This document shows, in pieces, positions 4,590 to 55,930 of a stretch of DNA of 64,000 nucleotides. The notes under the pieces are model-generated. The model worked only from the letters and a program-made list of their open reading frames with translations, did not search any database and was not told the origin of the DNA. The stretch comes from a bacterium (GTDB lineage: Bacteria > Bacteroidota > Ignavibacteria > UBA10030), in contig JAZDJN010000027.1 in the NCBI GenBank assembly GCA_043803945.1, forward strand, positions 7,931 to 71,930. The letters run 5' to 3'. Made by a program: the position numbers and the translations under genes. The stretch's first letter is position 1; every line of letters starts with the position of its first letter.

Positions 4590-7220
4590 CTACAAAGTAA
4601 ATGTGTAGCTGAGCGATGGAATCATAGGGAATAACGAAAGTTTTACTGCTTCCTTCATACCCGGTTGATTAGATTTATCGCGGAAGAGCACAGTATAAAT
4701 GTTCCGCCTTCCAAGCGCGTTATAAAAATTCAGGCTCCAAATTCCCCCGCCATCGGTGATGTAGGTAACCCCCAGATCGAGGCGATGATACGAGGGGAGG
4801 CGGTATCCATTCCGTTCTGTGTATGCCAGCACCTCTTTGCCAAACACAGAATACCTGCCATAGGGCAATGTTATGTTAAATCCGGAGGCGTAAATAGAAT
4901 TTGCCGAGAATGACCAATGATCGCTCACTTTGTATTGAGCAACAATATTCAGTTCGTGGGTCTTGTCGTTCGCGGCAAAGTAGGGCTGACCTCCATTGAT
5001 TTGCTCAAACTCTCGTTTCGATGTCGAGAGCGTGTAGGCAATCCAACCTGTCAGGTTTCCGGAATTCTTTTTTACAAGAAGTTCTGTACCGTACGCCCAT
5101 CCCTTGCCGAAGACTAATTCAGAGTCGAAGTAATTCTTAAAAAGAAAATTCGCTCCATCTTTGTAATCAATCTGGTTTCTGAGATCTTTGTAGTAGATCT
5201 CCGCTGAAAGTTCGCATGTGTTATCAAGAACAGATCTGACATAGCCCATTGAGATTTGATCGGAGATTTGCGGCTTGATGGCGGAGCTGCTGGGCTGCCA
5301 GATATCGAGTGGAGTGCCGGAATTCGAATTGCTGAGCATGTGTAAATATTGGAAATTTCTGGCATAACCAGCTTTTATAGAACTGAATTCGTCCAGCGTG
5401 AATGTAGCACTAATTCTGGGCTGGAGATTGGCGTACGTCTGATCTTCTTTGCGATGGAAATCGATATACAATTCGCCTGCATCCTCGATATCGAAATTAT
5501 CCGCTTCTCCCGCAACAGTAAAAAGACTTGCACGAATACCATATTCCAGTTTGATGTTATCATTCCAGGTGTGCTCGTGAGAGGCATAGGTATTAAACTC
5601 GTTCGCGGTCTTTTTCCCAATGGTAAATTTGTAATTCGCACTTCCCATCACGGAAAACTGAGCAGGGAGAAATGAGTGATGGATATAGTTAAGGCCAAAG
5701 CCGAAGGTGTTCTGTGCATCCTGAAAATATTCGAAGTCTTCCTTCAATGCGATATTGGAGACTTCGGAGATCCACTCTACATGATCGTCATCCTGGGCTT
5801 CTCCGCCGGCGTCGAGTTGATACTTAAAATTACTGAGGATGAGCGAGGAATTCAGGAAGAGTTTATTGCTGAACAAGTGATTCCATCGTACTGTGCCGGT
5901 TGAATTGCCCCAGTTCATATCGAACGCATCCGAAAATCCTATGCCGTCTCTTCCGAAGTACCCCGAGAGATAGACTCTGTCTCTCTCATTGATTTTATAA
6001 TTCACTTTCGCGTTGAGATCATAAAAATGGAACTTCGCATCGCTCGCATCGCTTGAGAGCGCTGTGAAAAAATCGAAGTACGTGCGCCTGCCGGAAATCA
6101 GGAAAGAGGCTTTGTCGTTCAGGATGGGCCCCTCCAGCATCAGCCGGGAAAAGATAAGGCCGATGCCGGCTGTCCCGTTGAACTCTTTCATGTTCCCCTC
6201 CTTCATTTGCATGTCGATCACGGAAGAGACTCTGCCGCCATACTTTGCCGGAGCGGTACCCTTCATCATTCGTACATTGCGAATCGCATCGGAATTGAAG
6301 ATGGAGAAGAGGCCGAAGGTATGGAATGGACTGTAGATGGTAGCTTCATCGAGCAGGAGGAGATTTTGATCGGCATTGCCGCCGCGGACATAGATGCCGC
6401 AATCGCCTTCACGCGGATTGCTCACTCCGGGCAGCAGTTGGAGAATCTTCAGCAGGTCTTGCTCACCGAGGAGCAATGGGATGGTACTGAGTTGACTTGG
6501 ATTCAATTGCACAGTTCCAAGCCGGGGTGAGCGAGGGGAGAGTTCTTCGAACTCCGCAACGACAACAACGGTATCGATCTTAATGGAGGAACTTTGTAAA
6601 TGAACATTGTTTGTGACATCGGATTCCAGTTCAATCAATACCTCCGAAGTGATATAGCCCATGTACCTGAACTGAACAATATAATTACCCGGGGAGAGTG
6701 TGATTGAATAAAAACCGTATGCATTGGCTGTCGTACCGAGAGTAAGGTCTCGCAAGTAGACTGTAGCGCCCAACAGCGCTTCTCCGCTTTCTGCATCTGT
6801 AATGTAACCGCTCATCGTGAACGACTCTCCCAAAGCTGCACCGGAGCGGCTTTTCTTTTTCACGAGGATCACCTGGTTCTTGTTCATCACGATAATATCG
6901 ATGCTTTCGTCGTGCAGGATTTCCTTTAGTACGAGGAAAGCCGGTTGATGATCCATGGAGAGCGTCACCGTGGTTTCTTTATTCAGGAGGTTCTCGTTAT
7001 AATTTAATTTGAATTGGCCTTTCTCTGCAACAGTGTGCAGGGCTTCTTTCAAGGGTACGTTCTTGAACTGAACAGAAATTGAATCTAACAAAGCCAGCGG
7101 CACCTGTACATTCCTTGAGTCAACGATGGGGTGCTGTTGCCCGATCATCGTAGAAGTTCCTGCAACCAGAACAAGGAAAAGTATCCAGCATTGTCTCGGT
7201 ATGTTGATTTGGATTTCCAT
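4590..7220 (-). CDS. TonB-dependent receptor/transducer (N-terminal STN signalling domain, carboxypeptidase-regulatory-like domain, plug, beta-barrel)
   Basis: 876 aa. The N-terminal STN-like region is 'VPLALLDSISVQFKNVPLKEALHTVAEKGQFKLNYN'. The CarbopepD_reg region is 'SGYITDAESGEALLGATVYLRDL...GNYIVQFRYMGY'. The plug motifs are 'GVSNPREGDCGIYVRGGNADQNLLLLDEATIYSP...KGTAPAKYGGRVSSVIDM'. The protein has a long C-terminal beta-barrel ending in an aromatic-rich terminus, 'YTFTL'. Confidence 0.8.
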   Translation of the reverse strand: MEIQINIPRQCWILFLVLVAGTSTMIGQQHPIVDSRNVQVPLALLDSISVQFKNVPLKEALHTVAEKGQFKLNYNENLLNKETTVTLSMDHQPAFLVLKEILHDESIDIIVMNKNQVILVKKKSRSGAALGESFTMSGYITDAESGEALLGATVYLRDLTLGTTANAYGFYSITLSPGNYIVQFRYMGYITSEVLIELESDVTNNVHLQSSSIKIDTVVVVAEFEELSPRSPRLGTVQLNPSQLSTIPLLLGEQDLLKILQLLPGVSNPREGDCGIYVRGGNADQNLLLLDEATIYSPFHTFGLFSIFNSDAIRNVRMMKGTAPAKYGGRVSSVIDMQMKEGNMKEFNGTAGIGLIFSRLMLEGPILNDKASFLISGRRTYFDFFTALSSDASDAKFHFYDLNAKVNYKINERDRVYLSGYFGRDGIGFSDAFDMNWGNSTGTVRWNHLFSNKLFLNSSLILSNFKYQLDAGGEAQDDDHVEWISEVSNIALKEDFEYFQDAQNTFGFGLNYIHHSFLPAQFSVMGSANYKFTIGKKTANEFNTYASHEHTWNDNIKLEYGIRASLFTVAGEADNFDIEDAGELYIDFHRKEDQTYANLQPRISATFTLDEFSSIKAGYARNFQYLHMLSNSNSGTPLDIWQPSSSAIKPQISDQISMGYVRSVLDNTCELSAEIYYKDLRNQIDYKDGANFLFKNYFDSELVFGKGWAYGTELLVKKNSGNLTGWIAYTLSTSKREFEQINGGQPYFAANDKTHELNIVAQYKVSDHWSFSANSIYASGFNITLPYGRYSVFGKEVLAYTERNGYRLPSYHRLDLGVTYITDGGGIWSLNFYNALGRRNIYTVLFRDKSNQPGMKEAVKLSLFPMIPSLSYTFTL

Positions 7221-7244
7221 TCGGATATACCGATAAGAGAAGAC

Positions 7245-8000
7245 TCAGTTCACTTTCTGAATGATTGAACCGCCGCTGATCGTTGTTCTGCGGATGACAG
7301 GATTTCCTTTATATTTAAGAATCGATCCTCCGCTCAATGTCAGATCGAGAATATCGGAGACCTGAATATTGCTGATGCTTCCGCCGCTGAGTGAGACATC
7401 GCAATTCTTCACAGGAAAATTGAAGAGATTGAACACTGTGCCGCCGCTTCCATATAATCGCATTTCGCTTGCACTACCAGTCAAGTCGACGACGCTCGCA
7501 CCGGTTAAATTAAAGTTTACTTCCGTCGCTGTCAAATATCCTCTAATCACACTTGCCCCGGAGGATACGATGTCTATTCCGTTGTTAAGGTCGAATCCTT
7601 CCAATGTCACGGAAGCTGCACCGTTAATATTGAGAGAGGAGAGATCGGGTGATTCGATTGTGACGTCGAATGTGATATTTTTATAGCTCTTGTTATCCAA
7701 TCCAATCGATACTTCATTGGACGATTGATAGGCGTTCATGTATTTCTCAATATTATCGTCGAGTGCAATCTGTATCGAGTACGTAGAGCTTTTCCTTATC
7801 TTGGCCTTTGCAGAATTATTCAAGAGGATCTTTGAAAAATTCTTAAATGGGAATGTGGCCGTGATGATCTTCCCGGAGCCGATAATGGCATCCCGATCGT
7901 TGTCATTATCGGGCCCGTTCATCGAATCAATTACTATGCAGCCTGTGAAGGAGAGAATCAGGGTGGTCAGTATTGTGAGGCTAAAAGTTCGATAGTTCAT
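7245..8000 (-). CDS. DUF2807/DUF4097-like lipoprotein (putative adhesin head GIN domain)
   Basis: Lipoprotein signal (FTGC). The C-terminal half contains repeated 'LSGGSI' / 'TGASVV' beta-solenoid-like repeats typical of DUF2807. Confidence 0.5.
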   Translation of the reverse strand: MNYRTFSLTILTTLILSFTGCIVIDSMNGPDNDNDRDAIIGSGKIITATFPFKNFSKILLNNSAKAKIRKSSTYSIQIALDDNIEKYMNAYQSSNEVSIGLDNKSYKNITFDVTIESPDLSSLNINGAASVTLEGFDLNNGIDIVSSGASVIRGYLTATEVNFNLTGASVVDLTGSASEMRLYGSGGTVFNLFNFPVKNCDVSLSGGSISNIQVSDILDLTLSGGSILKYKGNPVIRRTTISGGSIIQKVN

Positions 8001-8036
8001 TGGTCCTCCGATGAAAAGAAATATGATGGATGTCTA

Positions 8037-8738
8037 CTATTCGCTGATGTGTACTGGAAAAGTGAATCCGAGATTGATGCTGAATCCTTTACTTTTATAG
8101 ACTGCATGGTTCAGGATATTCCCGCCTAATATTTCATCCGCAAATTCACCGTTGATTCTTCCACTCTTGATAATATTGTTTAAGCCATGGCTGTACCGTG
8201 CCTCGAAAGAGAGATCGAGAAATTCGTCAATCTGATACATCAGACCACCGCCCAATTCCAGAGAATATTCAAGGTCATCCACCAGATCGTTGGCATCGGC
8301 TTCAAGTTCGATCTGCGCAAACGGGAGTCCCTGGATCTCTGCCCCTAAGCTGGATGAGAGGTTGATCCCAAGCGTTGGTCCGAAAAGGATGTACGGCTTA
8401 AGCTTATTGCCCACAGAATATTTCACGAGAAGGGGAAGTTCCAGGTATGACAGATTGAATGAGATGGTCGGAGAGAACACCAGCGTGTGAAATGGGCTCG
8501 CGGATGTCTCTTTCTCGATGTATGTCGGATTTAGCAACACTGAGAGATTCCTTGTCAATGGGATATCAAGAACTGCTCCGAATGTATGCGTAGGTCGACT
8601 GACAGCATTTGAATAGTAGAAGTTGCTCTGGTTCGCCTGGGAGAAATGAAATCCCCCGTTGAGTCCAAGATGCACTTGCGCCGTGAGTGTATGGAAGACG
8701 AAGAGAAATACGATTGGAAGAAATTTTAATCTGGTCAT
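8037..8738 (-). CDS. Outer-membrane beta-barrel (OmpA/OmpW-like porin family) protein
   Basis: 233 aa with a signal peptide. Alternating hydrophobic beta-strand pattern and a C-terminal aromatic-rich strand, 'GFTFPVHISE'. Confidence 0.45.
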   Translation of the reverse strand: MTRLKFLPIVFLFVFHTLTAQVHLGLNGGFHFSQANQSNFYYSNAVSRPTHTFGAVLDIPLTRNLSVLLNPTYIEKETSASPFHTLVFSPTISFNLSYLELPLLVKYSVGNKLKPYILFGPTLGINLSSSLGAEIQGLPFAQIELEADANDLVDDLEYSLELGGGLMYQIDEFLDLSFEARYSHGLNNIIKSGRINGEFADEILGGNILNHAVYKSKGFSINLGFTFPVHISE

Positions 8739-8885
8739 GGCATGTCACCTTTTTTTATCGTTTGTAAGGGGTTCTTTCTCTTAAGACAAACGAGGAAGTG
8801 TTTTGGGTGACGAGCGATTGGGAGACTTAATAATATTCTTATCCTGGGATCGAGCTGTCTCATAACGTCCGGTGAGGGTAGAGAT

Positions 8886-9917
8886 TCATTGAGGCACAAA
8901 ACGGATTGTGTCTCCATGCTGCTTATAGGTACTACCGAGGAGGATAGAGAGAAGATGCAGGTTATCCTCAAGGGGTTTATTTTCGATAAAGATCGTAATG
9001 CGATTTTGATAGAGTGCACTATCGGCAGCCACGATCTGAATCTGGTACCATCGCTCTAATTGCTGGAAGACCTCCTTGATTGGAGTGTTTTGGAAATATT
9101 TCTCTTTCTTCATCCATGAAATATAGTTTGAGAAATCAATTTCTGCCGGAGGGGAGAGAGAACCTCCTTCTCCCAATGTGCTCATGGTGTTTTTCGTTAA
9201 ATAGACTACCGCCGCCGTATCGGTATTCCCTTCCGTCTGGAACGAAATCCTTCCTTCGTTAACGGCAACAACGATGTTCCGGTTTGCCTCCCAGGCACGG
9301 ATGGCAAATAGTGTTCCGAGAACTTCGATCTTTCCTCCGTTCGCATGGACGATGAAAGGTTTGTCGGCATTCTTTGCCGCCTCGAAGTACGCTTCACCCT
9401 GCAGATACACCTCTCGGAGATCAGTGTTGTTAAAACTCTGAGGATATGTCAAGGAGCTGCCCGCATCAACCGTGATTCTGGATCCATCGGAGAGGACCAA
9501 GCTCTGCATAGTGTTTGATGTCAATGTGACTTTTTCGGCATCTCTCTCCGAAATAGAATTCAGATACAGATAGAGTGCTCCAAACATTATGATCAGTACA
9601 GCAGCAGCGCGTAATGCAGGGGAGTGGAACGGAGTTGCATAGTGCGGCCTCTTCCTTCCAGATTGCGGGAGATGGAGTATGTTTGTACTCCTCACGGAAT
9701 CGGTTTGTTCAATTCTGGAGAGGACACTCTTCAATGCCTTTTCAGTATCTGGTTTAGGAACTGCTGAGCGATGTTCAAACCAAGCTGCCTTAATGCGATC
9801 GTAGAATTTCCGGTTTTCTTCACTCTCGGCAATCCATTCGGCGAGCCGTTGTTCGTCGCTTTCAGATGAAACGCCGGTTAAATGATTGATGAGTATGTCC
9901 AGGTCAAACGATTTCAT
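8886..9917 (-). CDS. FecR-family anti-sigma factor (transmembrane sensor)
   Basis: 343 aa. The N-terminal cytoplasmic region 'HLTGVSSESDEQRLAEWIAESEENRKFYDRIKAAW' is typical of Bacteroidota FecR. It has a single TM and a periplasmic FecR/DUF4974-like C-terminal region, and lies directly downstream of the ECF sigma gene. Confidence 0.75.
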   Translation of the reverse strand: MKSFDLDILINHLTGVSSESDEQRLAEWIAESEENRKFYDRIKAAWFEHRSAVPKPDTEKALKSVLSRIEQTDSVRSTNILHLPQSGRKRPHYATPFHSPALRAAAVLIIMFGALYLYLNSISERDAEKVTLTSNTMQSLVLSDGSRITVDAGSSLTYPQSFNNTDLREVYLQGEAYFEAAKNADKPFIVHANGGKIEVLGTLFAIRAWEANRNIVVAVNEGRISFQTEGNTDTAAVVYLTKNTMSTLGEGGSLSPPAEIDFSNYISWMKKEKYFQNTPIKEVFQQLERWYQIQIVAADSALYQNRITIFIENKPLEDNLHLLSILLGSTYKQHGDTIRFVPQ

Positions 9918-10007
9918 CGAGTCTATGGTGTAAACGTATCCGTTACAGTGATGACAATTATAAGAGTCTAAAGGGTGACAACATGTTATTCCAAAATGAA
10001 AAATTTA

Positions 10008-10580
10008 TTACTCTAGCAGAAACAGTATTAAATACAGATGCTGCAACGATTTACTCAACGATTTAATCGCTCGCTTCAGTTGGGTTTTAACTGTATTGAT
10101 ACTGACCTTTTCTATCTCAGCAATTTCCTGGTAGGAGAGGTTGTCATATTTTGCCATAGAGAATATCTGCCGGCACTTGGGAGGCAGTTTCTTAATGGCC
10201 TTTTCCAGTGCTTCGGCGAGTTCGTTCCGTTCCAATTGTGTGTCTGGCTGGGGATTGGTTGTATCAACTCGATCCTCTTCAAATTCCAAAGAAGTGAAAA
10301 AACTCTGGTGTTTGAGATAGTTCAAGCATGAATTCTTCACCGAGGTATACAGGTAGCTTTTCAGATTGCTCGTGATTTGCAGGGATTGTCTGACATCCCA
10401 GAGTTTCACAAAGAACTCTTGAACGATGTTCTCTGCGGCGCCAGGATCTCGAACATATCGTGCGGCAAAATAGTACAGCGGTTCGTAGTACGATCGGAAG
10501 AGCTCAGAAAACGACTCAAGATCACCCCGGCGAATGCCTTCAGTGATGTCGTTATCGCTATGTCGAGGAGAAGCATTCAA
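10008..10580 (-). CDS. RNA polymerase ECF-type sigma-70 factor
   Basis: 190 aa. The region 2 motifs are 'FSELFRSYYEPLYYFAARYVRD...ENIVQEFFVKLW'. Region 4 is the HTH 'LSYQEIAEIEKVSINTVKTQLKRAIKSL'. Confidence 0.8.
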   Translation of the reverse strand: MNASPRHSDNDITEGIRRGDLESFSELFRSYYEPLYYFAARYVRDPGAAENIVQEFFVKLWDVRQSLQITSNLKSYLYTSVKNSCLNYLKHQSFFTSLEFEEDRVDTTNPQPDTQLERNELAEALEKAIKKLPPKCRQIFSMAKYDNLSYQEIAEIEKVSINTVKTQLKRAIKSLSKSLQHLYLILFLLE

Positions 10581-11056
10581 AGGCTTACATCAATCTATTG
10601 GCCTATCGTGAGAATCGCTACCATCGCTGCGAAAACTATTCGCTCCAATAGAGCGGCGATGGATTGTCCAATACTACGGCATTGCTATTCCTAAGATACA
10701 TCAGGAAATCCTGAAATACTAAAGGGAGGGATTGAATCAACAGTTCAGTAAGATTCCAAGGCGTTTCCCTACTAGGTTCACAGAGGCGGAGAGTCTTTTA
10801 AGGATTTTAAATATCTTCCAGAAGTAATCTCCTATTCCGTTGCTAGTACAAATTATGTTTTATACTAGCGGATTTAACAAGGGGAAAATCGAACTTGACA
10901 TTATCTTTGATTTCAAGTAACCTTGTATGGAGCTAGCTTAAGATTTTTCTGATAGACTATGAGATGTAATACTATCTCAATTCTACTAAATTTCATATGT
11001 ATTACCCTTTCAATACTGTTTCATTTATAGGTCAAGAATTTTGATCAGAGAAACGT

Positions 11057-11914
11057 TTGATGAAACAGGTAATCATTCTATGTTCATTCCTAATTAATGC
11101 CGCTCTTCTTTCAATTGCTGCCTTTGCTCAAGAAAAATCATCAATCCAACTAGATTCGCTTTTTAAGTCTAGAGTACAACTAGAAGAACAGGAGCTTTTT
11201 GATTTTCTTACAAATTTTAAATTTATATACATCGATAAACAAAATGAATTTAACAGAGCTCGTCAATTGAAAAGGATTGATAGTATCACATCAATTCTTC
11301 GTGCTTCTTGGAGGACAAGAAGCAAGATAAAACTCCTTAAATCATCTATAAGTACAAATCCAAATTCGAATACGATGTTTCATATTGGTAAGTATGACTT
11401 CAAGCGAGAGGCATTTGAGATTAAGCTAGGTAAGGTACCTTTTGCAGATAAATTAGACGTTGAAGAAGAGATTCTCAATAAATATTTAAGGAATAAAATA
11501 CCGAGGAGCACAAATATTTTAGGCGCATATATACTGCTATTCCTTGACAACTTCCAAATGGATAAAAAATATTTTCTTCCAATGAATACTTCTAGTGCTG
11601 AAGAATTTAAGCGACGGATTGAAGAGTATGAAACACCATGTGAAGTCGTTATTGATTTTTTAAGCTTTATCAAAGAAAGCATTAGTCTTGAATCTACAAT
11701 TGGTTTCGATAATTACAAGAATTCTCAAAAAGCTAACTTTCAGGGGATGTCCAAAAACGAAAGAGAAAGAATTCTGTTACAGCGATACCGATCACTATAT
11801 CCATATAATCTATCGCACGAAGCATCTTTTTTTCTTGAAGTTACTTTCAGGATCGTAGCAATTAGATTTTTTGATGTTTTCACCGATAAATATATTGATT
11901 GGGTTCCGAGATGA
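11057..11914 (+). CDS. Hypothetical secreted protein encoded in the low-GC island
   Basis: 285-aa ORF with a signal peptide (LLSIAAFAQE). Composition is AT-rich and I recognise no family. Confidence 0.45.
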   Translation: MMKQVIILCSFLINAALLSIAAFAQEKSSIQLDSLFKSRVQLEEQELFDFLTNFKFIYIDKQNEFNRARQLKRIDSITSILRASWRTRSKIKLLKSSISTNPNSNTMFHIGKYDFKREAFEIKLGKVPFADKLDVEEEILNKYLRNKIPRSTNILGAYILLFLDNFQMDKKYFLPMNTSSAEEFKRRIEEYETPCEVVIDFLSFIKESISLESTIGFDNYKNSQKANFQGMSKNERERILLQRYRSLYPYNLSHEASFFLEVTFRIVAIRFFDVFTDKYIDWVPR

Positions 11915-12031
11915 ACATCAGTAAATAGTATTTCTTTTTCTTCTAACAAGCTTTAATAAATGCATCTTACCAAAGAGTAATAATAAAGACGTTTCAACAT
12001 TAGGATATATTTCCTACTTATTATAGAAAAT

Positions 12032-13480
12032 TTGTCCCAGACAATTGAATATGTAAAGGCGGGCAATATGAACGCATCTAAAGTAATTTATATGAGTACT
12101 CTAATATTATCCTTCCCGTTTATCTTAGTGGGACAACCTTCATTAGATTGGATAAATAGAACTTCCACAAAAGAAAGCAATATCTTTAACTCTAGAATAT
12201 TTTTCTTTCCAGACTATTTGTTCCATCCGCTTTCTAGATATCAATATTATATTTTTCCAGACGACGAATTCGAAGAACATAAATTGAAAGAAAATCAAAA
12301 GTCTTTTCAATTACTCTTCGCATCTCGATGGAAAAATGGTTTCTTACTACAAATACCAATCGATGTGGGGAATAAATTAACAAATAGTAGTTACTTTCAA
12401 ATGGGGGTATATGATTTTAGATCGGAGTCTTTTCCATTGAGATTTGTTGGTGGCAATTTGGATTTTCCACTTTATAGGGAAGATGTTGATCAAACGCACC
12501 TGCAGAATGTATCTCAAGCAAAAGGCACAAAATATGCGTATCCGGGCCGAGGTGCAATACGATTGAGATCGAGTAAACCTTCAACAACTTTTTTTTCTTT
12601 GAAGGTTCCGAAACATTTTGCTGAAATATTCAAAAGTGGTGTAATTTCAGAAGGAATTGGAATTCAACTAATAATTGATTTTGAAAATTCGATTTCATAT
12701 TCATCAGCTCAAAAACCTACAAATCATTTTAAAGAGCAGATAGGAATTTGGAAGTTTAATAAAATTAATGAACAAGCTCTTAATACATATTTGAAGGAAT
12801 TTGGAAAAGTATTTGGAAGGCCAATGGAATTGATTCAATGCTTAAATTTGACAATAAAAATTAGAGGTTTTAGAATTGTTGATTATGAACAGATTATCCT
12901 TTTCGAGTGGATAGACAATTTAGCAACTCCTGGTTTATGGAAGATTGATTCAAAGAATTCAACATTCAGTGATCAGCTCATTATCGCTGAGCAACCGTTA
13001 GATACATTTATATCACAATGGGCGGAGTATCCATGGCATAGAGAAACTATCATCTCAAGTTACTCTATAGATAAGAATCAGGTTTCTAAACAAGAATGGC
13101 AATCATTTTTATCTCGGGATCTATATAATACAAGGAATGGATTTTTGACTTCTACTTCAATGAGCTATCTATCAGATGAATTTTCTTGGTGGGATTGTGA
13201 TTTCTATTTAAAAAGAATTGGTAAAAGATTACCGTCGAATTATGAAATTCGGCAGGCCGTCTCAGATAAACTTAAAAGCACTAATTCCAATAATAAGGCC
13301 TTCATTACTTTGATTAATTATCATAATGAGATTTGTAATAATTCGATAGATTTCAATAACAGGGAACACCTCTTTATTTCACGTAATGAAACCGGTCGAT
13401 GGTCAAAGACCGAATTTGACATAGATGATGATTACTGGCATTGGTCGAACTCGATCGGTTTTCGCGGTGTACATCACTGA
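12032..13480 (+). CDS. Hypothetical secreted protein with a degenerate FGE-sulfatase (SUMF1/DUF323)-like C-terminal region
   Basis: 482 aa with an N-terminal hydrophobic segment. The C-terminal part carries 'EYPW', 'VSKQEWQSFL', 'WWDCDFYLKRIGKRLPSNYEIRQAV' (compare the FGE 'W..A.AYC.W.G.RLPTEAEWEYAA' motif) and a terminal 'IGFRGV' (compare 'GFRCV'). Confidence 0.45.
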   Translation: MSQTIEYVKAGNMNASKVIYMSTLILSFPFILVGQPSLDWINRTSTKESNIFNSRIFFFPDYLFHPLSRYQYYIFPDDEFEEHKLKENQKSFQLLFASRWKNGFLLQIPIDVGNKLTNSSYFQMGVYDFRSESFPLRFVGGNLDFPLYREDVDQTHLQNVSQAKGTKYAYPGRGAIRLRSSKPSTTFFSLKVPKHFAEIFKSGVISEGIGIQLIIDFENSISYSSAQKPTNHFKEQIGIWKFNKINEQALNTYLKEFGKVFGRPMELIQCLNLTIKIRGFRIVDYEQIILFEWIDNLATPGLWKIDSKNSTFSDQLIIAEQPLDTFISQWAEYPWHRETIISSYSIDKNQVSKQEWQSFLSRDLYNTRNGFLTSTSMSYLSDEFSWWDCDFYLKRIGKRLPSNYEIRQAVSDKLKSTNSNNKAFITLINYHNEICNNSIDFNNREHLFISRNETGRWSKTEFDIDDDYWHWSNSIGFRGVHH

Positions 13481-13644
13481 TAATTTCTCTACGCTTATGA
13501 TTAATTTGATAAATAATAAAAATACATCAAACCCTATAAATAATTGTGAAAAACCTTATTGAACCTAGGTATTGGATTATCATTGTAGATTCTGAAATTG
13601 TAATATCAAACATCACTAACTAATCTTTCTACTGGCACCATACT

Positions 13645-14298
13645 ATGCCACTATCTGAGTTGAGCTGGAAGTTAATCCTTCTTTTTACTCCTGGGATTAT
13701 ATGCACTTTAACGATTGACATGTTGACAATTCATGCTCGTTGGTCACCATTCGATTTTCTAATCAGGTCTTTCATTTATGGTATCATTACTTATTTATTT
13801 TTACAGTTGCTACTCTTTACATATTTTGGAATTTATAGCGTTTACCATCATGAACAAATAACCATCGCTTACTTATCTATTTGGCGATTAATTACGGAGC
13901 AAGGACAGACCGTTAATATCATTGAGATTACGGGGTCATCTATATTATCAATCATCGTAGGATTTATTGCTAGCAAGGTGATGAATGACAAAGTATTAAT
14001 TAAGATTGGAAGGAAGCTAAAGATTACCTCTAAATTTGGAGACGATGATGTATGGTCATATTTCCTGAGTGATGACGAAGTACACTGGGTTTGGGTCCGA
14101 TGTCCAAAAGACAATATTGTTTACGAGGGTTGGGTTCAGGCGTTTTCTGAATCAGAAAAATATCGAGAAATCGTTTTACGAGATGTCAAAGTCTATGCAA
14201 ACAACAATTCTTCCTTCTTGTATGAGATTCCCGCTGCTTATCTATCAGGGGAACCGAATGATTTATTCATAGAGATTCCACCAGATCCATTTTTATGA
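13645..14298 (+). CDS. Hypothetical integral membrane protein (~4 TM plus soluble C-terminal domain) encoded in the low-GC island
   Basis: 217-aa ORF with four hydrophobic helices in the first 110 aa followed by a charged C-terminal domain. Confidence 0.4.
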   Translation: MPLSELSWKLILLFTPGIICTLTIDMLTIHARWSPFDFLIRSFIYGIITYLFLQLLLFTYFGIYSVYHHEQITIAYLSIWRLITEQGQTVNIIEITGSSILSIIVGFIASKVMNDKVLIKIGRKLKITSKFGDDDVWSYFLSDDEVHWVWVRCPKDNIVYEGWVQAFSESEKYREIVLRDVKVYANNNSSFLYEIPAAYLSGEPNDLFIEIPPDPFL

Positions 14299-14621
14299 GA
14301 AAACATGTATTCATAAATCCCCATAATCCGATCGAAATATATATAGGAGATTATCATGCGAAAAATACTTGCTGAGGGAACCGACAAGAAATCGATAAAG
14401 CCAAAACCACAAAAGCCACGTCCCAGCACACCTCCTCCACCACAACCAAGGCCTCATGGTGGAAGATAATAATACAAGCACAATAACTTTAGTTGTAGAT
14501 ATTGACTTATAGCTATTTGAATTGGAAGAATATTCTTAACTAGTATCCAAATATCAGTAGGATCAATTGTATGAGTATGTACGCTAACAATTCTAATATC
14601 TTATTTTATGAAAGGTACATT

Positions 14622-17486
14622 ATGAGACGATATCTTTTTGCCTTCTTATCCTTGTTATTCTCCTTCAGCACACTCGCAGTTGCTGGTGAAAAGGGGAAAG
14701 AGTTTAAAATTCCGTATGAGAAATATAAGCTTGCCAATGGCTTGAATGTCATTCTCCATATGGACAAATCCGATCCCATCGCCTCGATCTACGTCTGTTA
14801 CCATGTCGGCTCGAATCGTGAGACGAAGGGGCATACGGGATTTGCTCACCTGTTCGAACACATTATGTTTCAGGAGTCGCAGCACATTCCACAGGATCAG
14901 TTCTTTAAAAAGATTCAGGGTGCTGGCGGGACGTTAAATGGCTCGACAAATAATGACCGGACAAATTACTATGAGACGGTTCCGAAAAATGCATTGGAGA
15001 TGGCGCTCTGGATGGAAGCCGACCGGATGGGATTTCTGCTGAGCAAACTCACGCAGGAAGCATTCGAGAATCAGCAGAACGTTGTGCAGAATGAGAAACG
15101 GCAAAACTACGACAACCGTCCACTCGGCAACTCAGGGTATGTGTTGAGCAAATTGCTCTACCCTGATATCCATCCCTACAACTGGCAGGTCATCGGCTCG
15201 TTGGATGATCTTGGTAATGCCAGCCTGCAGGATGTTATCGACTTCTATCGAAAATATTATGGCCCGCAGAATGCAACACTGGTTGTTGCCGGCGATCTCG
15301 ATGTGCCGCAAACAAAAAAATGGATTGAAAAATATTTCGGAGAAATCAAGGGAGGAGCAAAAGCTCAATCGCTTTCCAAGATGCCTGTGACATTGACGGA
15401 AACAAAGAAAGCATACTATGAGGATGATCTCACAAACTCCAATTCCTTTACAATGGCATTCCCGACGGTTGAAGAATACAACAAGGACTCCTATGCACTG
15501 AGGTATCTCGGTCAGTTGCTCGCGAGCGGAAAGAAATCTCCGATGTATCGTGTGCTTGTAGACGAGAAAAAACTGACTCCAAGCATGGGCGGAGGAGGCG
15601 GAGGCCGCGGTATGGGCGGCGGCGGTGGTGGAGCAATGAACAGGAGCATGGAACTGAGCGGATCATTCAACATCTCGGTGCAGCCTTATCCCGATAAAAA
15701 TCTTACCGATGTGGAATCCGCTGTGAAGGAAGCTTTTGAATTGTTCGAGAAAGAACGCTTCACCGATAAAGATTTGGAACGGCTCAAAACCGGTATTGAA
15801 TTACAGTTCTATAACAGTATCGCCGGTGTTGCCGGAAAAGCTTCACGCCTGGGCGATCTGAATGAATATGCTGGTTCTCCCGACTTCCTGAATTCCGACC
15901 TCAACAATTCCCTCAATGTGACGAAGGAAGATATCTGGAGAGTATACAACCAGTATATCAAGGGGAAAAATTATGTCGTGCTCAGTATCGTACCGACAGG
16001 GAAATCAAATCTTGTTGTACAAGGTTCAACACTGTTCGTTATACCTGAGGAGTCGATATCCAGGCAGGGCACCGCGAAGAAGAGTGCAACTTCTGTAAAA
16101 GTTGAGCCAACCCCGACAAAATTTGATCGATCGAAGGAACCGCCGAAAGGCTCTAACCCGGCTGTGACGATTCCAAAAATATGGACAGCGAACACAAAGA
16201 ACGGAATCAAGATTTATGGTATTACCCATAAAGAACTTCCGCTTGTTCAATTCTCTGTCTCGCTGAAAGGCGGAATGATGCTCGATCCAAAAGATAAGAT
16301 CGGCACATCTTCTTTGACCGCACGGCTGATGAATGAGGGGACCAAGACTAAAACTCCGGTGGAATTGCGTGAAACCATGCAGGACCTTGGTGTCAGTGTC
16401 TCGATGAGCAGCGGCGAAGAAACGTTTACGGTCTCCAGTAGCTGCCTCGCAAACAAACTCGCTGATGCCGTTGCTCTTGCAAAGGAAATGATGTTTGAGC
16501 CGCGATGGGATGAGAAGGAGTTCGCCCTGGCAAAACGCCAAACTATGGAATCCTTTAAACGGAGTGAAAGCAGCCCTGCCAGTATTGCCACAAGAGTGTT
16601 CGACAAGCTTGTCTATGGTGCCGATCATATTCTGGCGAGTTCTGCAAGCGGGACGGCAAAATCGATCGAGAGCATTACCATCGACGATCTGAAGAATTAC
16701 TACAACAACTATTTCTCACCCTCCGTCGCTAAGATTATGGTGGTAGGGGACATTACCAAAGAAAAAGCAGTTGCTATGTTTGATGCATTGAAAGATTGGC
16801 AAGCAAAGGAAGTTAAGATTCCAAAGATTTCCGTCGAACCATCCAAAATGAAACCCGGCATCTACTTTGTCGATGTTCCGAATGCAAAGCAATCGGAATT
16901 CAGAGTCGGTCATTTGGGACTTGCCAGAACAAATTCTGATTACTACAAAGCGGTCGTCATGAATTACCACCTTGGCGGTAACTTCAATGGAATTCTGAAC
17001 ATGATCCTGCGAGAGGAGAAGGGATACACATACGGTGCCCGTTCCAGTTTCTCCGGAACAACAAATCCCGGTACTTTCCAGGCATCATCGAGCATTCAGG
17101 GAAATGCAACCTTGGAAACCTCAAAAATCATCCATTCGGAGATCGATAAATATCGTCAGGGAATATCCCCCGAGAATCTTGCCCTCGTTAAAAGCACAAT
17201 CCTGAATGGCGAGGCATTGAATTATGAGACTATTCGCCAGTTGGCTGGCATGCTTTCCCTGATTGTTCAGTACGATCTGCCGTTCGATTATGTCAAAAAG
17301 CAGCAAGAGATTGTCAAGAATATGAGCACGTCAGAGCATAAGGCACTCTCGGAAAAATATCTGCTGCCGGATAAGATGATCTATCTCATCGTGGGTGATA
17401 AAGCAACTCAGTTTGACAAGTTGAAGGAAGTCGGCCTTGGAACTCCTATCCTGTTGGATAAAGAAGGAAAACCGGTCGCACAATAA
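14622..17486 (+). CDS. M16-family (pitrilysin/insulinase-like) zinc peptidase, two-domain, secreted
   Basis: The inverted zinc motif HxxEH is 'GFAHLFEHIMF', with the downstream E in 'NVVQNEKRQ'. There is a signal peptide and a length of ~955 aa, typical of two-repeat M16 enzymes. The probable start is the ATG at 14622 (MRRYLFAFLSLL); the ORF is open from 14571. Confidence 0.8.
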   Translation: MRRYLFAFLSLLFSFSTLAVAGEKGKEFKIPYEKYKLANGLNVILHMDKSDPIASIYVCYHVGSNRETKGHTGFAHLFEHIMFQESQHIPQDQFFKKIQGAGGTLNGSTNNDRTNYYETVPKNALEMALWMEADRMGFLLSKLTQEAFENQQNVVQNEKRQNYDNRPLGNSGYVLSKLLYPDIHPYNWQVIGSLDDLGNASLQDVIDFYRKYYGPQNATLVVAGDLDVPQTKKWIEKYFGEIKGGAKAQSLSKMPVTLTETKKAYYEDDLTNSNSFTMAFPTVEEYNKDSYALRYLGQLLASGKKSPMYRVLVDEKKLTPSMGGGGGGRGMGGGGGGAMNRSMELSGSFNISVQPYPDKNLTDVESAVKEAFELFEKERFTDKDLERLKTGIELQFYNSIAGVAGKASRLGDLNEYAGSPDFLNSDLNNSLNVTKEDIWRVYNQYIKGKNYVVLSIVPTGKSNLVVQGSTLFVIPEESISRQGTAKKSATSVKVEPTPTKFDRSKEPPKGSNPAVTIPKIWTANTKNGIKIYGITHKELPLVQFSVSLKGGMMLDPKDKIGTSSLTARLMNEGTKTKTPVELRETMQDLGVSVSMSSGEETFTVSSSCLANKLADAVALAKEMMFEPRWDEKEFALAKRQTMESFKRSESSPASIATRVFDKLVYGADHILASSASGTAKSIESITIDDLKNYYNNYFSPSVAKIMVVGDITKEKAVAMFDALKDWQAKEVKIPKISVEPSKMKPGIYFVDVPNAKQSEFRVGHLGLARTNSDYYKAVVMNYHLGGNFNGILNMILREEKGYTYGARSSFSGTTNPGTFQASSSIQGNATLETSKIIHSEIDKYRQGISPENLALVKSTILNGEALNYETIRQLAGMLSLIVQYDLPFDYVKKQQEIVKNMSTSEHKALSEKYLLPDKMIYLIVGDKATQFDKLKEVGLGTPILLDKEGKPVAQ

Positions 17487-44226: not shown

Positions 44227-44565
44227 GGGGACTGGACTACACAGTCATCAGTAATTGAATTTATGTGATAAAGTTTTTTACTCATTCGAAGAAGAAAGAG
44301 CAACCGCGAAGAATGCCAATAGTCCAAGAATAGAATGAAAGTGTTTTCCTCATAATAGAAAAAGTCAGGCAATGTGTTACCTGACTTTTAGTACGCCCGA
44401 AGGGAGTCTCCGCCAGGCGGATGAGCCTCCGGCTCAGAGCCCCTAACACCCATTTTGATTAATGACCGAAATCGTACTAATGCTTAATTCGCGGTAATAA
44501 AAATCCCGCCTCCCAGCGGGATCTTTTCTTCTCACTTCTCACGTTTTTCTTCTTACCTTCTTTTG

Positions 44566-44639
44566 TACGCCCGAAGGGAGTCGAACCCCTAACCCTCAGC
44601 TCCGTAGGCTGATGCTCTATCCAGTTGAGCTACGGGCGC
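44566..44639 (-). tRNA. tRNA-Arg (anticodon ACG)
   Basis: The reverse complement folds as a cloverleaf: acceptor GCGCCCG/CGGGCGT, D-arm GCTC..GAGC, anticodon stem TCAGC/GCTGA with loop CTACGGA, and T-arm AGGGG-TTCGACT-CCCTT. There is no encoded CCA. Confidence 0.8.
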
Positions 44640-44755
44640 AAAGGAATATGTAAATGTGGAAATGAGTAAATGAAGGAATTGTAGCATTGAAAAGACGTTT
44701 CTCTTAATTCCTCAATTTCCTAATTCCCAAATTTTCACATTCTCACATTTCTATG

Positions 44756-44828
44756 TAGCCCTAACGGGATTCGAACCCGTATTTTGGCCTTGAGAGGGCC
44801 ACGTCCTAAACCCTTAGACGATAGGGCC
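44756..44828 (-). tRNA. tRNA-Glu (anticodon CTC)
   Basis: Reverse complement 'GGCCCTATCGTCTAAGGGTTTAGGACGTGGCCCTCTCAAGGCCAAAATACGGGTTCGAATCCCGTTAGGGCTA'. The anticodon loop is CTCTCAA and the T-loop is TTCGAAT. Confidence 0.75.
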
Positions 44829-44944
44829 AAGGTAAATAAGTGAATGTGAAAATGTGGAATTGAAAAACAGTTTCTTTCAATTTCTCAATGCCATATTCTA
44901 CATTCTCATATTCCCCCATTCTCATATTTCCATTGCTGCCCCGC

Positions 44945-45017
44945 TAGGGCTCGAACCTAGACTCTTCTGATCCAGAGTCAGACGTGTTGCCAGTTACACC
45001 ACGGGGCAATTAAAAAT
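44945..45017 (-). tRNA. tRNA-Gln (anticodon CTG)
   Basis: Reverse complement 'TGCCCCGTGGTGTAACTGGCAACACGTCTGACTCTGGATCAGAAGAGTCTAGGTTCGAGCCCTAGCGGGGCAG'. The U1-A72 pair is typical of tRNA-Gln, the anticodon loop is CTCTGGA and the T-arm is CTAGG-TTCGAGC-CCTAG. Confidence 0.8.
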
Positions 45018-52271: not shown

Positions 52272-52283
52272 CAGTCATATTCA

Positions 52284-53513
52284 ATGTATCCAATGAAAGA
52301 ATTACGAACGATGAGAAGGTGCACTCTACAACGGTTCTTGTTTTACCTAGCTTTGGTGATCTGGAATTCATTCTCCTATGGACAATCACCTCTCCCTCCC
52401 GATGCAAAACTGGAAAAACTTGCCACCGGATTCCTGCAGCCCGAGGGACCAGTATGGAAAGAGGGAGTCGGCCTCCTCTTTAGCGACATCAAACGCAACC
52501 TCATTAATCTCTGGTCGCCGGTGGATGGTTCGATAAAAACATATCTGCAGCCGTCGGATAGTTCCAACGGACTCACATTCGATCGCCATGGCCGTTTAGT
52601 GCTCACACAGATGCGATTGCGCCGGGTATCACGGCAGGAATTGGATGGCACGATCACACCGCTTGCCTCGACATATAATGGTAAGAAACTGAACAGCCCG
52701 AATGATCTCGTGGTGAAATCCGATGGCTCCATTTTCTTTACCGACCCCGATTTTAATATCCCTGTCGGGCAGATAAAAGAATTGAACTTCAAAGGGATTT
52801 ATCGGATTAGTCCCGCCGGCGCGTTGATTCTCCTGGATAGCACATTCGATAAACCGAATGGCATTTGTTTCTCTCCAGATGAACGGAAATTATACGTTTG
52901 CGAGTCGCCGCGCTGCGGCATTTATGTATGGGATGTGATCGGTGATTCCGCGCTTGCGAACAAGAAACTTTTCTTCGCAATCCCCGCAACCGGCTATGCA
53001 GATGGGATGAAAGTTGATGCAGCAGGCAATCTTTACTGCACAGGGCCTACGGGAGTCTGGATTATCTCTCCATCGGGACAATATTTGGGTAAGATTGCTA
53101 CACCTGGAAATCCATCGAACTGTGCCTGGGGTGATGCCGATAGGAGAACCTTATATATTACTGCGGACAGTTCACTGTATAGGATTCGGATGGTCACCAC
53201 AACAAAACAGGAAGAAGAAGAGCATCCAACACCCGACCACTCCGAGCTGTTTCAGAACTATCCGAATCCATTCAATGTCTCGACTATTCTTACGTATCGG
53301 ATTTCGGAAGCCTCGCATATCAATCTCAGGATCTTTGATTCGCTGGGGAATCTTGTCACAACTCTCGTCGACGAGAGGAGAGAGGCGGGTTTCCATGCTC
53401 GAACATTCGATTGCTCGGTGTTGGCGAGCGGTGTTTATCTTGCCCAGCTCATGGCCCGAACGGATCGGACAATCTCCACCTCGCAATCGAAAAAGTTACT
53501 GCTGATACGGTAG
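52284..53513 (+). CDS. SMP-30/gluconolactonase/LRE-like beta-propeller protein with T9SS C-terminal sorting domain
   Basis: 'FLQPEGPVWKEGVGLLFSDIKRNLINLW' and 'NSPNDLVVKSDGSIFFTDP' are propeller-family motifs. The C-terminus 'FQNYPNPFNVSTILTY...SGVYLAQL...KKLLLIR' is a T9SS CTD. Confidence 0.65.
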   Translation: MYPMKELRTMRRCTLQRFLFYLALVIWNSFSYGQSPLPPDAKLEKLATGFLQPEGPVWKEGVGLLFSDIKRNLINLWSPVDGSIKTYLQPSDSSNGLTFDRHGRLVLTQMRLRRVSRQELDGTITPLASTYNGKKLNSPNDLVVKSDGSIFFTDPDFNIPVGQIKELNFKGIYRISPAGALILLDSTFDKPNGICFSPDERKLYVCESPRCGIYVWDVIGDSALANKKLFFAIPATGYADGMKVDAAGNLYCTGPTGVWIISPSGQYLGKIATPGNPSNCAWGDADRRTLYITADSSLYRIRMVTTTKQEEEEHPTPDHSELFQNYPNPFNVSTILTYRISEASHINLRIFDSLGNLVTTLVDERREAGFHARTFDCSVLASGVYLAQLMARTDRTISTSQSKKLLLIR

Positions 53514-53672
53514 TTAATCGATGATCGTTTATATTGCTGCGCGTGAAGGTGAAGTATTGCCTCGCTTTGTATCGTCCGATAGATCCTCAAGAAAAAGAAG
53601 AGAATTTTAAAGAATAGGTGTATATTTGTTTGTCGTACTTGATATGTATGTTCATTCACAGGAGGGGACTCC

Positions 53673-55862: not shown

Positions 55863-55930
55863 GCGGGTGAGTTACAGGGTGTGCATACAAATAATTAAGT
55901 GTTGTCACTGTTTACTAACGAGATAGTATT

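Follow-up and report, generated by a model that had tools for sequence, protein, structure and literature searches.

We analyzed a 64-kb stretch of contig JAZDJN010000027.1 (assembly GCA_043803945.1, positions 7,931 to 71,930 of the forward strand), hereafter referred to as the window, for the nature of a 3.8-kb AT-rich islet that lies between a gene for an extracytoplasmic function (ECF) sigma factor and a gene for an M16 peptidase. The islet is composite, compositionally foreign, and accessory. It comprises two unrelated two-gene cassettes: cassette A, consisting of g1 and g2, which encode secreted proteins, and cassette B, consisting of g3, which encodes a DUF6338 membrane protein, and a micro-ORF (open reading frame) for a 37-aa proline-rich protein. 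The account that we favor, with moderate confidence, is that of a compositionally foreign islet of two independent two-gene cassettes, with the functions proposed for them below.

Composition, composite structure, and origin of the islet

The initial annotation had reported a sharp drop in GC content between about 10.7 and 14.5 kb, and windowed GC bore this out (33% versus 46.3 ± 2.2%, z of about -6.5). In 400-nt sliding windows, GC fell from 0.46 to 0.30-0.37 at ~10.8-14.6 kb and then returned to 0.43-0.50; the segment 10800-14560 has a GC of 0.330. The islet is the sole low-GC region of the window, all other 1-kb bins lying at 0.41-0.51 (mean of 0.463 and standard deviation of 0.022 outside the islet) and the three islet bins having z values of -6.1 to -6.7. 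Windows of 100 nt placed the islet at 10790..14620, unstranded, and the limits of the GC drop set its left edge at ~10790 and its right edge at ~14600-14650. At the left edge, upstream of g1, two 7-bp arms (GCTAGTA ... TACTAGC) form an inverted repeat around an AT-rich loop of 14 nt (10842-10875).

Codon usage deviates as well, with both GC at third codon positions (GC3) and synonymous choice shifted in the islet genes. The GC shift is most marked at third codon positions, GC3 being 0.27, 0.28, and 0.35 for g1, g2, and g3, respectively, versus 0.48-0.55 for the genes encoding the TonB-dependent receptor, FecR, the sigma factor, the M16 peptidase, and the next ORF. For each amino acid, codons ending in A or T are commoner in the islet (Leu, 0.71 versus 0.26; Pro, 0.70 versus 0.36). 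The fraction of Phe, Tyr, Met, Ile, Asn, and Lys residues (FYMINK) is 0.36-0.39 in the islet versus 0.25-0.28 in the mid-GC orthologues on metagenomic contig L001.

An ORF scan placed g1, g2, and g3 on the + strand, in agreement with the three co-directional ORFs originally described between the sigma/FecR operon and the M16 gene. The further claim that they form a single functional set did not hold, since g1-g2 and g3-micro-ORF were never found together elsewhere: g3 was present in none of the four other g2 loci, and g1 or g2 in none of the 13 other g3 loci. In the window, a terminator-like hairpin followed by a T-rich run, identified by a consensus match only, is located at the end of g2 (13465..13489, +), and a 164-nt AT-rich spacer then precedes g3. 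The failure to co-occur outside the window, together with the hairpin and the spacer, indicates two separate cassettes. A single four-gene system, in which g1, g2, g3, and the micro-ORF would act as one envelope-targeted accessory module, would account for four genes that are co-directional, contiguous, and similarly AT-rich, and that could have arrived jointly. This is quite unlikely given that the genes 3' of g2 homologues differ among contigs L001, L007, L093, and L094, that g1 and g2 are missing from the other DUF6338 loci, and that g2 and g3 are split by the hairpin and spacer. Nor are all the products envelope-targeted, as had been suggested, because the small protein has no signal peptide and g3 has a C-terminal domain predicted to lie in the cytoplasm. 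Cassettes A and B may have arrived jointly from one AT-rich donor or may have entered successively at a permissive intergenic site.

The M16 peptidase shares 60-67% identity with its orthologues in Melioribacter and in other metagenome-assembled genomes (MAGs) of Ignavibacteriota, and the host is by this similarity assigned to Ignavibacteriota (Melioribacter-like). No g1, g2, or g3 was found within 10 kb of the M16 orthologues at any of 80 loci, mostly from Ignavibacteriota MAGs. The three genes are accessory rather than core genes. Several observations weigh against acquisition. There is no integrase ORF (7-19 kb), and no transposase, tRNA, or flanking direct repeat at the islet edges; the repeats around the islet are short and at chance level, and the nearest tRNAs are at 44.5 kb. 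An empty site could not be defined among the 80 fetched M16-orthologue loci, since even the closest genomes (67% identity) retain no synteny beyond M16. With neither an insertion mark nor an empty site, the case for acquisition is one of composition and distribution.

These two lines of evidence nevertheless agree with the horizontal acquisition originally proposed, as they include the deviant composition, the rarity of g2, and the occurrence of g3 relatives beside integrases, on plasmids, and in a phage. The AT-rich stretch would not have been acquired at all if it were a chimera of MAG assembly or binning, or a native region subject to weak selection or high AT mutational bias. The source is indeed a MAG contig, and edges lacking a mobility gene or repeat, as well as the missing empty site, would fit such an explanation. 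A chimera, however, would need two breakpoints, which is unlikely, since both flanks have the composition of the host and the block of low GC is enclosed in a contig of 100 kb, with intact divergent genes on either side. GC3 and amino-acid usage (FYMINK) also move together, and decay is disfavored by islet ORFs that remain unbroken and show 44-70% identity to conserved relatives. Relatives of g3 can also deviate from their host in the opposite direction, as on contig L004 (0.456 versus 0.375). We consider non-acquisition very unlikely and a horizontal origin of the islet highly likely.

The donor of the islet, or of its two parts, would have been AT-rich, at roughly 28-35% GC. Members of the g2 family occur in genomes of very different GC: the family genes on L001, L007, and L094 have 44-47% GC and that on L093 has 28.5%, each matching its own contig. 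A 33% copy in a 46% genome, as in the window, thus looks imported from an AT-rich carrier. The donor was probably another member of the Fibrobacteres-Chlorobi-Bacteroidetes (FCB) group, as suggested by AT-rich relatives such as those on L093 and L002 and by the signal peptides of g1, g2, and their relatives, all of which end in ...A|Q. This ending is the usual signal-peptidase-I pattern of Bacteroidota-type bacteria. The region resembles classical genomic islands in its sharp compositional deviation, deviant codon usage, and accessory genes, and it differs from them in the absence of integrase, tRNA, and flanking repeats and in a length of only 3.8 kb. It is therefore better termed an islet, situated between divergent genes.

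Cassette B: a DUF6338 gene and its proline-rich partner

The gene g3 (13645..14298, +) encodes a 217-aa protein for which the initial annotation had recognized no family. It scored 25.9 bits against the Pfam family PF19865 (DUF6338), 0.6 below the gathering cut-off of 26.5. NCBI names the protein "DUF6338 family protein," and precomputed PF19865 assignments exist for the identical NCBI protein and for the homologues P0005 and P0008. Homologues were found at 70, 66, 53, and 28% identity, and tblastn gave full-length matches to annotated DUF6338 genes with E values down to 1e-29. By these similarities g3 is assigned to DUF6338, and it fits that family as an integral membrane protein of ~160-260 aa. 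The earlier description as a protein with four transmembrane (TM) segments was right as to the membrane location and one segment too many: hydropathy gave three (residues 6-29, 38-66, and 90-113), beyond which a K/R-rich junction leads into a soluble C-terminal domain of ~100 residues (~115-217). By the positive-inside rule, this domain would be cytoplasmic. Searches with g3 yielded only a 26-residue match at an E value of 0.014 in PADLOC-DB v2.0.0 and no useful match in NCBIfam, and its profile found nothing credible among PDB sequences, the only match being the lambda tail-tube protein at an E value of 0.6.

Among g3 homologues, GC spans 0.35 to 0.53, and it can deviate from that of the host in either direction. 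The homologue on contig L004 (3674-4384) has a GC of 0.456 and a GC3 of 0.52 versus 0.375 for the contig, and an integrase fragment lies just downstream. On L002 (1542-3063) and L005 (1326-2120), single-TM proteins of ~190-260 aa without a Pfam match are encoded upstream of the g3 homologues; by eye, the proteins of the two contigs are alike neither to each other nor to g1 or g2.

The possible 37-aa proline-rich micro-ORF of the initial annotation proved to be a real, conserved gene. It encodes the basic protein MRKILAEGTDKKSIKPKPQKPRPSTPPPPQPRPHGGR (14356-14469, +), with an AGGAG sequence 7 nt upstream of the start. We compared 14 DUF6338 loci with downstream sequence. Besides the window and three metagenomic relatives, these came from a P2-like Yersinia phage, an E. 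coli chromosome, and plasmids of B. cereus, Vibrio, Oceanimonas, Agrobacterium, Pantoea, Acidiphilium, Methylobacterium, and Citrobacter. A small ORF follows the DUF6338 gene on the same strand in 14 of 14. These partner ORFs encode ~37-91 aa, and their start positions range from 56 nt upstream to 58 nt downstream of the DUF6338 stop codon. Their alignment revealed a motif of approximately EG[YT]x[KR]..(KGG.N).P, followed by a proline-rich and usually basic tail. The N-terminal EGY/KGG motif is conserved, and the charge and the sequence of the proline tail vary (the tails on L002 and L005 are rich in Ser, Pro, and Gln). The peptide of the window is strongly basic, has PRP-type repeats, and lacks a signal peptide. 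The partner proteins matched no family in Pfam or NCBIfam, and a small proline-rich partner was part of no DUF6338 family description that we found.

The g3 gene and the 37-aa micro-ORF are thus a real gene pair that is conserved across phyla. In P. stutzeri, digest-free proteomics detected three well-expressed proline-rich small proteins encoded in a predicted operon with a DUF6338 gene (PMC10433244), and the authors of that study regarded these proteins as not conserved beyond P. stutzeri. The comparison of 14 loci suggests that the P. stutzeri pairing belongs to a general pattern.

Several of these loci lie in mobile or defense-related contexts. In Yersinia phage vB_YenM_06.16-2, the DUF6338 gene and the small ORF, genes 015 and 016, are located between gpA/tum and the portal gene gpQ. 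Anti-phage systems accumulate in the cos-proximal gpA-gpQ hotspot of P2-like phages (Rousset et al. 2022, PMC9122126). The DUF6338 homologue of E. coli ET776, at 1138290-1138973 of NZ_CP100909, lies beside genes for a GajB helicase (PADLOC, E = 3.6e-235) and a WYL regulator (Gabija+WYL) as well as one for an OLD-type endonuclease. Genes encoding TIR-like and caspase-family proteins adjoin the cassette in B. cereus pAH187_45 (L088, 4843-6222) and in Citrobacter pF217-5 (L100, 3338-4704), where all five genes are on one strand. Pairing of TIR and caspase defines type IV Thoeris (bioRxiv 10.1101/2024.10.24.620036), and the adjacency on two plasmids from different phyla may reflect either defense-island clustering or a functional link. 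On the Vibrio plasmid, the cassette is part of an integron-cassette-like array full of toxin-antitoxin pairs. The 4.2-kb mobilizable plasmid of Oceanimonas carries, as its sole other annotated genes, those for a RelE/ParE-family toxin, a DUF6290 protein, and a relaxase. In Pantoea, the cassette lies upstream of ADP-ribosyltransferase and RES-domain genes. The closest metagenomic relatives of g3, on L002 and L004, are near integrases.

We propose, tentatively, that cassette B is a defense, exclusion, or addiction module. As a mobile conflict module, it would belong to the abortive-infection, superinfection-exclusion, or addiction type: the small cytoplasmic proline-rich protein would bind and restrain, or regulate, the cytoplasmic C-terminal domain of g3, and release from this partner would let the membrane protein damage the membrane. 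Binding of the proline-rich protein to the g3 domain is speculative; the hint for it is a weak 23-residue match to SH3_16. The layout is that of membrane-effector abortive-infection and toxin-antitoxin cassettes, which likewise are mobile two-gene units pairing a membrane protein with a tiny second product. The Yersinia phage pair occupies exactly the hotspot in which P2-like phages carry gpA-gpQ cargo (old, tin, and others). As in toxin-antitoxin modules, the small genes are adjacent and co-oriented, sometimes overlapping, and found on plasmids, in a phage, and in a cassette array. Cassette B differs from P2 cargo and abortive-infection cassettes in having no sequence match in PADLOC v2 and, in the window, no defense neighbors. 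The initial annotation had offered defense or toxin/immunity as functions for the whole islet; context is consistent with this for g3 and the micro-ORF and not for g1 and g2.

Other observations weigh against this proposal. No known defense gene flanks cassette B in the window itself, and g3 and its small partner matched nothing in PADLOC v2, IMG/VR, or PHROGs. The SH3-like idea for the g3 C-terminal domain comes from a Pfam match that is below threshold, and the defense assignment as a whole is one of guilt by association, with ~6 informative contexts among the 14 loci and no background statistic. The same pair could instead serve peptide production and immunity or export, the small protein being a cationic proline-rich antimicrobial (proline-rich antimicrobial peptide- or bacteriocin-like) or a signaling peptide and the DUF6338 protein its exporter or immunity protein. 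The strongly basic peptide of the window with its PRP-type repeats would suit this, as would the mobility of the cassette, which is like that of bacteriocin loci; antimicrobial roles for proline-rich small proteins are also considered in PMC10433244, whose authors place DUF6338 in biosynthetic gene clusters. In 14 of 14 loci, however, the conserved unit has no signal or leader peptide, maturation enzyme, or ABC exporter. What is conserved in the small protein is the N-terminal EGY/KGG motif and not the charge or the proline tail, which, with the absence of a signal peptide, sets it apart from proline-rich antimicrobial peptides; in addition, the soluble domain of g3 would face the cytoplasm. 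We regard a peptide-immunity pair as rather unlikely, and a defense, exclusion, or addiction module remains the function that we propose for cassette B.

Cassette A: secreted paralogues with a truncated FGE-like tail

The gene g1 (11057..11914, +) encodes a 285-aa secreted protein (284 aa from the NCBI start at 11060) with a single hydrophobic segment, which is N-terminal, and a signal peptide that ends AFA|Q. The gene g2 (12068..13480, +) had been described as encoding a 482-aa secreted protein. Secretion stands, and 482 aa is the length of the longest ORF, from 12032; the identical NCBI protein has 470 aa, so the start is probably M13 (12068). Residues 42-294 of g2 (482-aa numbering; 12155..12913, +, from the hhalign columns) form an N-terminal g1-like module, whose strongest motif, by the invariant residues, is VP..[YF]AE.FK. 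In hhalign, residues 26-283 of g1 aligned with residues 42-294 of g2 over 247 columns (98.7%, E = 4.5e-16), and the g1-type protein P0024 was picked up by the g2 profile. Homology over a module of ~255 aa indicates that g2 consists of a g1-like module plus a C-terminal extension and that g1 and g2 are paralogues.

The g2 family is extremely rare. Searching 5.8 billion proteins by word index recovered only g1 itself and, for g2, itself and one relative (49% identity). An exhaustive HMMER search of 1.84 billion cluster representatives with the g2 profile gave 18 matches at E < 1e-3, of which ~10 were true relatives; the rest were generic proteins with a domain of the formylglycine-generating enzyme (FGE) type that matched columns ~340-400 only. 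One further locus came from a scan of Joint Genome Institute (JGI) metagenomes and none from IMG/VR. No plasmid or phage copies of g1 or g2 and no defense neighbors of either were found. Searches of PADLOC-DB v2.0.0, PHROGs, and NCBIfam with g1 and g2 gave no useful match, and the g1 profile found nothing among PDB sequences.

The gene order g1-g2 recurs, in the absence of g3, on two other metagenomic contigs, L093 and L001, which have GC of 28% and 46%, respectively. On L001, g1 is 44% identical to its homologue (339-1223) and g2 is 49% identical to its own; on L093, the C terminus of the g1-like gene overlaps the start of the g2 homologue. The genes downstream of g2 homologues encode a T9SS-type (type IX secretion system) secreted protein on L001, membrane and thioredoxin-like proteins on L007, a tRNA-synthetase-like protein on L093, and a protein with two DTG motifs on L094. 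The last (1238-2035) is a 265-aa protein without a Pfam match, whose D-T-G motifs, LDTGSP and IDTGLF, are reminiscent of pepsin- or retropepsin-like aspartic proteases. Pfam identified no domains in the neighbors of g2 and g3 homologues on L001, L002, L004, L005, L007, and L094.

The C-terminal part of g2 (SWWDCDFYLKRIGKRLP ... GFRGVHH; 13013..13477, +) is a truncated FGE-sulfatase-like domain (PF03781). The FGE-like tail, the one family resemblance noted initially, is upheld, with a score of 27.8 bits against a gathering threshold of 23.3. The match covers profile positions 22-124 of 255, and it is residues 328-412 and the terminal GFRGV motif that match the FGE-sulfatase family. The best PDB relative of the tail is SUMF2 (1y4j, E = 4e-4), relative to which ~60 residues are missing from g2. 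Three of 10 g2-family members matched PF03781, with a best E value of 7e-12. The family alignment shows no conserved Cys in its C-terminal 100 residues, and no sulfatase was found among the ORFs read at 4.6-19 kb, no window-wide sulfatase scan having been made. FGE catalysis needs a Cys pair (C336/C341 in human FGE), and SUMF2 is a non-catalytic paralogue.

An active g2, that is, a formylglycine-generating or SUMF1/EgtB-type enzyme that acts on a secreted protein, perhaps g1 or a sulfatase, would explain why PF03781 is matched above its gathering score and why PDB FGE and SUMF2 sequences match g2 with E values of 4e-4 to 1e-2. The domain is, however, cut by roughly half relative to the FGE-sulfatase/SUMF1-SUMF2 family and lacks the conserved Cys pair, a DinB-like domain as found in EgtB is absent, and the best PDB match is the non-catalytic SUMF2. 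Because the domain is truncated and the family has no conserved cysteine, g2 was rejected as an active FGE, and we consider such activity extremely improbable. A second difference from the FGE-sulfatase/SUMF1-SUMF2 family is that g2 fuses the domain to a module of ~255 aa not found with FGE domains elsewhere. Two other candidates were also rejected: a GldK/PorK-type T9SS lipoprotein for g2, which has no lipobox and a different N terminus (a sequence reading only), and a SusD-like protein for g1 (16 bits versus a cut-off of 27).

The g2 tail is instead predicted to be a reduced C-type-lectin-like binding domain. We suggest, again tentatively, that g1 and g2 are non-catalytic envelope binding proteins that act as a hetero-pair. 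They would be non-enzymatic periplasmic or secreted proteins, and the FGE-like domain of g2 would be the ligand-binding part of the pair. An AlphaFold2 model of g2 built from a 10-sequence alignment had a predicted local distance difference test (pLDDT) score of 66.8, with values mostly of 77-94 over residues ~160-300 and below 50 at the C terminus. The model had no fold match in PDB or BFVD, and the g1/g2 module may represent a new fold; weighing against this, the model is moderate, so that the lack of a fold match is weak evidence of novelty. A more ambitious proposal, put forward with more reserve than either functional assignment, has a separate part for each cassette. DUF6338 with its small partner would be a new phylum-spanning two-component anti-phage (abortive-infection) or addiction system, in which the intrinsically disordered proline-rich protein would act on the C-terminal cytoplasmic domain of a three-TM effector and thereby gate it, and the g1/g2 module would be a new fold restricted to a handful of FCB-group bacteria.

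Genomic setting and significance

The islet occupies a divergent intergenic region, as the cluster of ECF sigma, FecR, and TonB-receptor genes is on the - strand and the M16 gene is on the + strand. The left flank is the ECF sigma gene (10008-10580, -) and the right flank is the M16 peptidase gene (14571/14622-17486, +), for which two in-frame ATG starts are possible; both were confirmed by Pfam. The islet lies ~210 nt upstream of the sigma start, and the promoter region of the sigma gene may thus have been displaced or altered. In addition to the ECF sigma factor and a FecR anti-sigma factor, the cluster at 4590-10580 (-) encodes an outer-membrane protein of 233 aa that is beta-barrel-like, a lipoprotein-like protein of 251 aa, and a TonB-dependent receptor of 876 aa; it is a typical FCB-type trans-envelope signaling cluster. 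The M16 peptidase has a glycine-rich internal insert (...MGGGGGGRGMGGGGGGAMN...) that separates its two halves.

Elsewhere in the window, four ORFs on the + strand (948-2498, 52272-53510, 53643-55859, and 55919-58024) have a common C-terminal segment, which also matches the ends of ORFs in related Melioribacteraceae loci. These segments are probably T9SS-type C-terminal sorting domains. A cluster of tRNAs, Arg(ACG), Glu(CTC), and Gln(CTG), at 44565-45008 (-) lies 30 kb away and has no connection with the islet. An Rfam scan of 9.5-15.5 kb gave sub-threshold noise only.

By itself, the islet is an ordinary outcome of horizontal transfer. Cassette A represents a very rare secreted family, possibly with a new fold and with a non-catalytic FGE remnant, and is mainly of interest to protein-family curators. 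The pair of a DUF6338 protein and a tiny proline-rich protein extends from Ignavibacteria to Bacillus, alpha- and gammaproteobacteria, and a P2-like phage, and as a pair it is absent from PADLOC v2, Pfam, and NCBIfam. Since versions of cassette B exist in E. coli and in a Yersinia phage, it is a cheap-to-test candidate for a new membrane-acting defense or addiction system.

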